Below, piece after piece: positions 53,476-53,806 of a DNA stretch of 64,000 bases. Below the pieces are notes generated by a model. That model made no database searches, was not told where the DNA came from, and saw only the letters and a program-made list of their open reading frames with translations. Position 1 is the stretch's first letter. Every line of letters begins with the position of its first letter. The stretch is from Escherichia phage P479: the sequence record MW269952.1; one strand, given 5' to 3'. Position numbers and translations under genes: made by a program.

Positions 53476-53806
53476 GAAACCGGGTCGCTACCGGTAAGTC
53501 GTCGGACTGAAGTTCCCTGAATAAGACCCGACTTTAAGGCGTACATGAGTTGACCTCTTAAAGTCCCTTATCTCACAGCTGAAACGGCGCACCGAATTAT
53601 CGATTCGAGGAAATATCTTTGCCGTAAGCCGAGTAGCGTTTTTGACGGAACGTTCGGATATGGTCGAGATATGGCCTTTTAAAAATATTGAGTAGCGTCA
53701 ACTGCTTAATAACCGGGTTCGAATCCCGGCGTTTCGTACAAACACTTGCCTTGCAGGTGGAACCCCGACAAGGTATAGCCCCTTCCGAAAGGTTGGGGCT
53801 TTTTTA
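53476..53806 (+). ncRNA. structured non-coding region with tRNA-like T-arm (CCGGG-TTCGAAT-CCCGG) and terminal terminator; candidate stable RNA(s) or tRNA remnant
   Basis: About 330 nt with no convincing ORF, several local hairpins, a repeated GAGTAGCG motif, canonical T-loop, and a strong terminator hairpin at 53777-53806. Confidence 0.3.

Follow-up and report, generated by a model that had tools for sequence, protein, structure and literature searches.

Orthologues of the T4 stable RNAs rnaD and rnaC predicted at the 3′ end of the tRNA transcription unit of Escherichia phage P479

What is encoded by the roughly 330 nucleotides (nt) that follow the transfer RNA (tRNA) genes of Escherichia phage P479? 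We addressed this question for positions 53476 to 53806 of a 64,000-nt stretch of the phage genome (MW269952.1), which we refer to as the window. A preliminary description had noted hairpins, a tRNA-like T arm, and a terminator at this locus, and had suggested either RNAs analogous to rnaC and rnaD of phage T4 or a decayed tRNA. Using positions 53470-53815 as a blastn query against 50,697 phage records, we found that 804 records match the region, and in 679 of these the match covers 80% or more of the query, which is far beyond chance. T4T aligns at 86% identity overall, across the features annotated there as rnaD (species 2 RNA, 119 nt) and rnaC (species 1 RNA, 139 nt), and the order and spacing of the elements (rnaD, 6-nt spacer, rnaC, trailer, terminator) are as in T4. 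Because the annotated features are matched in their T4 order and spacing, we conclude that 53471-53806 is almost certainly the 3′ end of a phage tRNA transcription unit that encodes direct orthologues of T4 rnaD and rnaC. The RNAs are thus the T4 genes themselves rather than analogues of them, and the start of the unit is placed at about 53471, 5 nt upstream of the position first proposed. Every feature named in the preliminary description can be located in the sequence, and apart from two hairpins that lack conservation its observations are confirmed. These genes are not new; finding them re-identifies the species 1 and 2 RNAs of T4, as is ordinary in a T4-like genome. The elements of the unit, with RNA ends transferred from the T4 annotation, are as follows.

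53471-53593, + strand: rnaD orthologue (T4 species 2 RNA), 123 nt, mapped from the T4T annotation via the alignment and matched by covariance model R1
53594-53599, + strand: spacer GAAUUA, 6 nt, which is the 5′ leader of rnaC
53600-53738, + strand: rnaC orthologue (T4 species 1 RNA), 139 nt, tRNA-like, placed by the mapped T4 annotation, covariance model R2, and the z score of its minimum free energy (MFE)
53739-53776, + strand: conserved 3′ trailer with hairpin
53777-53805, + strand: intrinsic terminator closing the tRNA/stable-RNA transcription unit

The rnaC orthologue is identical to T4 rnaC at 137 of 139 positions (98.6%) over its full length, with only two substitutions, and has the same neighbors, with rnaD upstream and the trailer and terminator downstream. 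The rnaD orthologue is 77% identical to T4 rnaD overall, 98% identical in the 5′ 50 nt, and nearly identical in the 3′ 25 nt. The tRNA-Arg next door is only 57% identical to its T4 counterpart. The Kha5h record annotates rnaC plus a terminator at the homologous site. P479 itself belongs to the T4-like phages (family Straboviridae, subfamily Tevenvirinae); its top matches are Escherichia phages CJ20 and RZ, and the next tier of relatives includes MN01 (Gaprivervirus) and VR20.

The sequences of both T4 RNAs reportedly date from work in the Abelson laboratory in the 1970s; in vitro, species 1 RNA is reported to be a substrate of RNase III. The approximately 1.75-kb primary transcript of the T4 tRNA operon ends after the species I RNA gene (2008, PMC2330249), and a 2010 review describes the biological roles as unknown (PMC3014915). 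Northern blots and RNA sequencing in a 2022 omics study place RNAC and RNAD of T4 among the late RNAs, "of yet unknown functions" (PMC9697503). The function of the two RNAs is a 50-year-old question, and papers up to 2025 still call it unknown; we found no functional study of either RNA in the literature searched up to 2026. The same literature contains no account of covariation-supported folds or of a loop-loop contact, the structure drawings of species 1 RNA from the 1970s being outside the search, so the folds and contact described below may be new.

To establish how rnaC folds, we gathered homologues from GenBank phages and viral contigs, covering Tequatrovirus and the close relatives of P479, Karamvirus, Moonvirus, Winklervirus, Gelderlandvirus, Kanagawavirus, Marfavirus, Jiaodavirus, and unclassified phages. 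A model built by hand was converted to covariance model R2, with which 27 distinct sequences from about 10 genera were realigned; the alignment is thus fitted to the model. R2 matches the window at 53600-53741 with 148 bits. With the helix between loops L3 and L4 included as a pseudoknot, standard pairs occupy 93.6% of 1,070 cells, compared with 33-50% when the partners are slid by 1-3 columns. Changes on both sides were found in 26 of the 40 pairs, three of them in the loop-loop helix, and 0 of 500 shuffles attain the observed value on any of five measures. An earlier alignment of 19 sequences made with MAFFT only agrees with this result, with 92% paired and covariation at 15 of 33 pairs. RNAfold, given rnaC of the window alone, reproduced the nested model at -50.2 kcal/mol (z = -4.55), and 0 of 200 shuffles fold as well. 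The covariation from homologous regions that the preliminary description had proposed as a check is therefore present, in rnaC and, as described below, in rnaD, and the folds proposed for the two RNAs are very probably correct. The rnaC elements are as follows.

53601-53607 (CGAUUCG) with 53730-53736 (CGUUUCG), + strand: P1, an acceptor-like stem of 7 base pairs (bp) with a central tandem U.U; 2 of 7 pairs covary
53608-53677, + strand: long arm P2-P3
53608-53610 with 53675-53677, and 53613-53617 with 53668-53672, + strand: P2; compensatory changes in 2 of 3 pairs of P2a and 4 of 4 of P2b
53621-53664, + strand: P3 hairpin; 5 of 5 inner-stem pairs compensatory
53642-53647, + strand: loop L3, UUGACG, complementary to L4
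53686-53711, + strand: P4 arm, 10 bp; 10 of 10 stem pairs covary
53696-53701, + strand: loop L4, CGUCAA, complementary to L3
53713-53729, + strand: T arm CCGGG-UUCGAAU-CCCGG; 1 of 5 pairs covaries
53737-53741, + strand: discriminator-like U, then ACA-A; in the T4 annotation, UA is the 3′ end of the RNA

Together, these elements predict a tRNA-shaped four-way junction. The 7-bp acceptor-like stem would stack on a canonical 5-bp T arm, which had already been recognized from the letters of the window; the long bent arm P2-P3 would take the place of the D arm, and P4 that of the anticodon arm or a long variable arm. At the third pair of P1, 10 sequences have A-U and 17 have G-C. The tandem U.U is present in 26 of the 27 sequences; only in Jiaodavirus do these two positions become Watson-Crick pairs, and P1 is there Watson-Crick throughout (U.U to U-A, U.U to A-U, and C-G to U-A). 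The middle pair of the T stem is G-C, U-A, A-U, C-G, or U-G across genera. The outer pairs of P3 come from the MFE fold plus compatible single substitutions (G-U to A-U, C-G to U-G). Counted through the trailing CAA, rnaC is 141-146 nt long across about 10 genera. Its central 60 nt fall into two sequence types that cannot be aligned with each other, and the length is still held. In the second type, a hairpin again presents UUGACG as its 6-nt loop, and the stem of that hairpin covaries as well, so that the two types share an architecture despite their different sequences. In the Winklervirus copies (L022 and L027), we observed a degenerate T loop (UGCAUCC or UGCAUUC) and a change of GGCC to CGCC, with the remaining fold kept; this could be a correlated change or the start of decay.

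The duplicated motif GAGTAGCG, which had been noticed before any homologues were compared, is present at 53631-53638 and 53690-53697. L3 and L4 are perfectly complementary in every rnaC sequence, so that the 6-bp helix is 100% paired. One of its pairs is AU in 24 sequences, GC in two, and CG in one; another is CG in 26 and AU in one. Marfavirus has L3 UUGGCG with L4 CGCCAA, and Jiaodavirus has L3 UUGCAG with L4 CUGCAA, which amounts to three compensatory changes in two independent lineages. From these sequences, we predict that a 6-bp loop-loop helix joins the terminal loops of P3 and P4. Like the kissing loops of the HIV-1 dimerization initiation site (DIS) and of ColE1 RNA I/II, this is a 6-bp Watson-Crick pairing of two hairpin loops kept by compensatory changes; unlike in those systems, both loops lie within one 139-nt molecule, and the analogy is one of motif only.

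Several alternative pairings of rnaC were considered and rejected. An acceptor stem formed between GAAACG at the 3′ end of rnaD and CGUUUC does not fit most genera, which have rnaC without rnaD and preceded by a tRNA. An internal acceptor pairing ACGGAAC with GUUUCGU anti-covaries (A.C in Karamvirus) and is absent from Gelderland-type copies; this register underlies both an ARAGORN tRNA-Phe call and an Rfam tRNA-Sec match. Pairing of the 5′ UUCGA with the palindromic T loop leaves the variants of that loop uncompensated. The hairpin CGAATTATCGATTCG (53594-53608) of the preliminary description does not hold up: it covers the spacer between the two genes together with the first nucleotides of rnaC, is disrupted in T4 (CAAAT...), and has the rnaC acceptor strand as its 3′ half.

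How tRNA-like is rnaC? It has an acceptor stem and a T arm with the T-loop consensus; it lacks a D arm and a 7-nt anticodon loop, having instead a 6-nt loop that is paired to another loop. Over rnaC and rnaD of the window, ARAGORN made no tRNA or transfer-messenger RNA (tmRNA) call. Rfam 15 offered no family for either RNA at the gathering threshold or at E values up to 10, and all matches in 53200-53900 were far below threshold; the tRNA family RF00005 did not match, and the best match from the tRNA clan was tRNA-Sec at 16.6 bits (E = 2.3; gathering score, 47). These results agree with the earlier remark that no full cloverleaf could be folded here. R2 weakly matches genuine tRNAs, such as the tRNA-Arg of the window at 20 bits, and ARAGORN calls Karamvirus rnaC a 96-nt tRNA-Phe in the anti-covarying register. 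The acceptor strand is followed by U-ACA-A in the window, T4, and Karamvirus and by U-CCA-A in Marfavirus and Jiaodavirus, where the sequence reads as a genuine discriminator plus CCA.

Compared with class II or tRNA-Sec-like tRNAs, which have a long extra arm, rnaC shares the 7-bp acceptor-like stem stacked on a 5-bp T stem with a UUCGAAU loop, the four-way junction, residence in a tRNA operon, and, in two genera, the encoded U-CCA. It differs in its 70-nt arm in place of the D arm, the missing 7-nt anticodon loop, the tandem U.U of the acceptor stem, the ACA found in the window, and its sub-threshold scores in ARAGORN and Rfam. The tRNA-like domain of tmRNA and the module of bacterial YrlA (Y RNA-like) RNA are stable non-tRNA RNAs that have only the acceptor/T-arm top half of a tRNA and are matured by tRNA enzymes. 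By analogy, rnaC may likewise be a stable RNA of the type that keeps this top half; it differs from them in having no tag open reading frame (ORF), pseudoknot ring, G3.U70 (the third acceptor pair is A-U or G-C), or Ro-binding helix, and no Rfam match of that kind appeared at E up to 10. Because the D arm, the 7-nt anticodon loop, the tag ORF, and G3.U70 are all absent, rnaC is neither a tRNA nor a tmRNA. Its origin from a tRNA is plausible.

The fold of rnaD was derived with RNAalifold from 15 T4-type sequences, and covariance model R1 extends it to other genera. R1 finds a single copy in the window (53472-53593, 117 bits). In the alignment of 27 distinct rows, one of which is a spurious partial match, 93.8% of cells are paired, compared with 34-46% in slid controls, and 20 of 33 pairs covary. 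The elements are as follows.

53479-53495, + strand: hairpin H1, ACCGG-GUCGCUA-CCGGU, from RNAalifold; 5 of 5 pairs compensatory across genera
53498-53504, + strand: 5′ strand of closing stem Ha, GU-CGUCG, paired with 53585-53589 and 53591-53592
53511-53514 (AGUU) with 53577-53580 (AGCU), + strand: Hb; U-A/A-U covariation in T4-type phages (UA in 9, AU in 5)
53518-53525 with 53567-53575, + strand: Hc, enclosing a variable apical hairpin (53530-53539 with 53556-53565) whose stem varies with compensation
53585-53593, + strand: 3′ strand of Ha, CGGCG-C-AC, plus a 1-nt overhang

This comparison predicts an rnaD that is not tRNA-like, with one hairpin at the 5′ end and then a long irregular hairpin whose closing stem includes the 3′ end of the RNA. 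The sequence of H1 is wholly different in W70, Karam-, Moon-, and Marfavirus. In three Moonvirus-type rows, a G-C pair of Ha has become C-G (CGUCC / GGGCG); Hb is UUUAAU/AUUAAA in Karamvirus, and one of its pairs is cleanly flipped between the window and T4 (U-A to A-U). The motifs AAGUCGUC, CCCUG, and GGCGC are nearly invariant in rnaD, with CCCUG, which flanks Hc and the apical hairpin, invariant. The MFE structure of the window rnaD is the consensus fold; its z score is an unremarkable -1.21, so support for the fold is comparative rather than thermodynamic. T4 rnaD has the same fold, and the window differs in an apical hairpin of other sequence that is 4 nt longer and in that its rnaD follows an ORF rather than tRNA-Arg. 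A hairpin of GTCGG (53501-53505) and CCGAC (53528-53532) proposed earlier does exist in the window; CCGAC is absent from T4 and Kha5h, and in the fold supported by covariation the partner of CGUCG is the 3′ end of rnaD, which goes against that hairpin. A box C/D or kink-turn (K-turn) reading of CUGAUGU...CUGA in rnaD was rejected, given that the window has CUGAAGU and that the position is a covarying Watson-Crick pair.

The locations of the two RNAs vary among genera. The rnaC gene is flanked by tRNA-Trp and tRNA-Gly in Karam-, Gelderland-, and related genera and follows tRNA-Pro in Jiaodavirus; in genera other than that of P479, A/U-rich leaders of 3-6 nt (AAUUA, AACAA, AAUAA) separate it from the CCA end of the preceding tRNA. 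Homologues of rnaD are found between tRNA-Asn and tRNA-Asp in Karam- and Jiaodavirus and upstream of rnaC in Moon- and Marfavirus. The Vequintavirinae phages W70 and A73 have rnaD alone, directly after a tRNA and with no rnaC. The W70 homologue (L019 1492-1592, 81 bits) has an apical region resembling the Karamvirus type, and the presence of rnaD in this phage points to horizontal transfer of the module. In JS98 (L031, L032) and vB_EcoM_005, rnaC is precisely deleted and rnaD is fused to the trailer. In MN01 (L001 3092-3599), rnaC is replaced by about 500 nt with an ORF of 127 amino acids (aa) that had no match in PHROG or Pfam searches; in VR20 (L029), no rnaC was detected, and the junction after rnaD is the same as in MN01 and is followed by unrelated sequence. 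The replaced and deleted segments have the same boundaries as the RNA, and rnaC thus acts as a cassette. Judged from these genome comparisons, rnaC and rnaD are discrete, separable, non-essential, and independently mobile cassettes within phage tRNA clusters. Pattern scans of viral contigs and metagenomes for rnaC and rnaD found no lineage beyond the T4 type and the Marfavirus type, and BLAST with the Jiaodavirus rnaC copy gave matches in Jiaodavirus only.

In three Karam- and Marfavirus loci (L004 1173-1315, L033 1576-1716, and L021 1084-1200), we also observed a conserved non-coding stretch (..GUGUUAAUGAAGAUUAUAUCUG..) that lies downstream of the rnaD homologue and reaches to the next tRNA. 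This stretch, which is not in the window, may be a third structured RNA.

What might produce these RNAs, and what might they do? On the pattern of general tRNA biology, the host tRNA-maturation machinery would cut rnaD and rnaC from a polycistronic tRNA precursor: RNase P would recognize the acceptor/T-arm minihelix of rnaC and free its 5′ end, 3′ exonucleases would trim both RNAs to their closing stems, and the compact folds would account for their stability and accumulation. We consider this processing route, drawn by analogy, reasonably likely. As to function, we suggest tentatively, and at rather low probability, that rnaC is a tRNA mimic that engages a protein reading the acceptor/T-arm top half of tRNA. 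The partner could be a host tRNA-processing enzyme or a tRNA-targeting defense factor, and the anticodon-like loop would be kept unavailable by the internal kissing interaction. Paired acceptor-stem positions are near-invariant though free to covary, which argues for sequence-specific recognition of rnaC. A more elaborate proposal is doubtful: that rnaC is a dedicated mimic offered to a host or phage protein that recognizes tRNA, such as a tRNA-targeting defense nuclease, RNase P, or the CCA-adding enzyme, with its anticodon-like arm locked by an intramolecular or dimer-forming kissing loop, that rnaD is a separate, unrelated structured module moving between Straboviridae and Vequintavirinae, and that both are accessory host-range factors.

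Taken as a whole, with the orthologues, the folds, the processing route, and the guess at function, we regard this explanation as probable, and several points weigh against parts of it. The RNA ends come from the T4 annotation, and in P479 the genes are known from sequence only. An ORF rather than a tRNA precedes rnaD in the window, and the origin of the rnaD 5′ end is therefore uncertain. The U-ACA in place of U-CCA and the two U.U mismatches of the acceptor stem mean that rnaC is not a standard substrate of RNase P or of the CCA enzyme, and its T loop is degenerate in the Winklervirus copies. The covariation is compatible with L3/L4 pairing within one molecule or between two, and because the P2-P3 arm (~23 bp) is far longer than P4 (10 bp), intramolecular pairing needs a sharp bend. 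As rnaC is missing in the close relatives MN01, VR20, and JS98, it is dispensable and any function is conditional. Recombination or homing in the tRNA region, as opposed to selection, could account for some of the extreme conservation. The tRNA-mimic role is one that we only infer, and the analysis identified no binding partner. The folds, a loop contact that can be broken and restored, the natural rnaC-minus relatives, and a phage of another family with rnaD only make the question of function experimentally specific.

Ranked next after the tRNA-mimic reading is a minority possibility of some substance, namely that rnaC and rnaD are cis-acting structured modules of the tRNA transcript with no role in trans, serving as processing punctuation and as buffers of 3′ stability or termination, and accumulating only as stable by-products. 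Consistent with this, both RNAs are found only within tRNA clusters or at the 3′ ends of such clusters, in the window and T4 they are just upstream of the operon terminator, loss or replacement of rnaC leaves the trailer and terminator, and no target or partner is known from the literature searched. However, a mere spacer needs neither 98.6% identity where the adjacent tRNA has 57% nor the invariant single-stranded motifs (AGGA, CCCUG, and the A-rich joiner). The maintenance of the loop-loop interaction by compensatory changes, and preservation of the RNA itself while its position in the cluster varies by genus, also argue against it.

We think it improbable that the two are small regulatory RNAs (sRNAs) that base-pair with phage or host mRNAs. 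The loops of rnaC that are most strongly conserved are paired to one another, reports of a seed region, a target, or a link to Hfq are lacking, and blastn against 5,426 E. coli genomes gave no similarity or extended complementarity at that sensitivity; on the same search, a host origin or host target of rnaC and rnaD was rejected. What speaks for such sRNAs is that PMC9697503 names RNAC and RNAD "small regulatory RNAs," that rnaD has the invariant single-stranded stretches CCCUG and AUCAC, and that a T4-like phage adapted to a semi-permissive host acquired one shared single-nucleotide polymorphism (SNP), in rnaD, in 3 of 3 lines (2025, PMC12685909). As we read the coordinates in that paper, this convergent SNP falls within the variable apical hairpin, at about nt 73-78 of the transcript; standing variation may also account for it.

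A decaying tRNA pseudogene, the alternative raised at the outset, is very unlikely for rnaC. That suggestion retains the acceptor-like stem, the T arm, the weak tRNA-Sec match, the cross-matches of R2 to tRNAs, and the labels tRNA-Phe or tRNA-Lys in some annotations. It is opposed by the steady length across genera, the covariation of 26 of 40 pairs in a conserved RNA, the much better conservation of rnaC than of the adjoining real tRNAs, and the production of rnaC as a stable RNA by T4 (PMC9697503); rnaD, moreover, is not tRNA-like.

That the region encodes small proteins, as the hypothetical-protein coding sequences (CDSs) under the match in many GenBank records would have it, can be set aside almost entirely: on either strand, the longest ORF contained in 53476-53806 is 38 aa, in keeping with the preliminary description, which saw no convincing ORF, the lengths of rnaD homologues (116, 118, 120, and 122 nt) do not differ by multiples of three, substitutions in stems are compensatory and do not fall at third-codon positions, and the structure signal of rnaC is confined to the + strand (MFE z of -4.55 versus -0.30 on the - strand). 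Nor does the homologous region in relatives give any sign of encoding a protein by these measures. A mechanical 231-aa ORF with a TTG start (53688-54383) crosses the 3′ part of the region; its credible start is ATG 53829, that of the DUF7338 gene, which is the next gene downstream. Among deposited genomes, many place a hypothetical protein, tRNA-Phe (KKP_3262), or tRNA-Lys (G2133) over rnaC and rnaD, and few have rnaC or rnaD features. These annotation errors are systematic and no Rfam model exists to correct them; a family model for rnaC and rnaD would improve phage annotation.

Upstream of the two RNAs, the window differs from the T4 operon in having two tRNAs and an ORF where T4 has eight tRNAs and segB. 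ARAGORN and Rfam both identify the two tRNA genes, and in the rest of the 64-kb window neither makes a further call (at the gathering threshold for Rfam).

53068-53143: tRNA-Met
53144-53220: tRNA-Arg(UCU)
53236-53475: 79-aa ORF of unknown function (phrog_33509), between tRNA-Arg and rnaD; its TGA stop overlaps the annotated 5′ end of rnaD
53829: ATG start of the DUF7338 gene

The tRNA cluster thus comprises two genes here, compared with eight in T4 and more than 15 in Karamvirus, and both stable RNAs are nonetheless kept. The 5′ end of rnaD does not abut the 3′ end of tRNA-Arg, as the 79-aa ORF intervenes, which is also the case in other T4-type phages. We regard this ORF as a context variant that gives no ground to exclude identity with T4 rnaD. 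Because tRNA-Arg abuts rnaD in T4 and an ORF lies between them in the window, the rnaD 5′ end must arise differently here than in T4. A sigma-70-like site (TTGTTA-16-TACAAT, 53441-53468) lies just upstream of rnaD; we rejected it as a promoter for rnaD, as such sites are no more numerous in the window than expected by chance.

Downstream, the trailer can form either of two mutually exclusive hairpins (CACUUGC...GCAGGUG or GCCUUG...CAAGGU). It is nearly invariant among T4-type phages and is kept where rnaC is deleted (JS98) or replaced (MN01); the window copy is without the 11-nt GCC-GCAA-GGC hairpin of T4 and most relatives. The strong terminator expected at the end of the region was recovered as a hairpin, AGCCCC...GGGGCU (53777-53800), with its stem formed by 53777-53782 and 53795-53800 and followed by six U. 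A simple terminator scanner missed this hairpin because its interior is 12 nt; the site at 53777-53805 has the features of an intrinsic terminator, and Kha5h is among the records that annotate a terminator at the homologous site. The fold of trailer plus terminator has a z score of -2.98. After the DUF7338 gene, at 54385-54401, lies what looks like a bidirectional terminator: a GC-rich hairpin with a perfect 7-bp stem and T runs on both strands.

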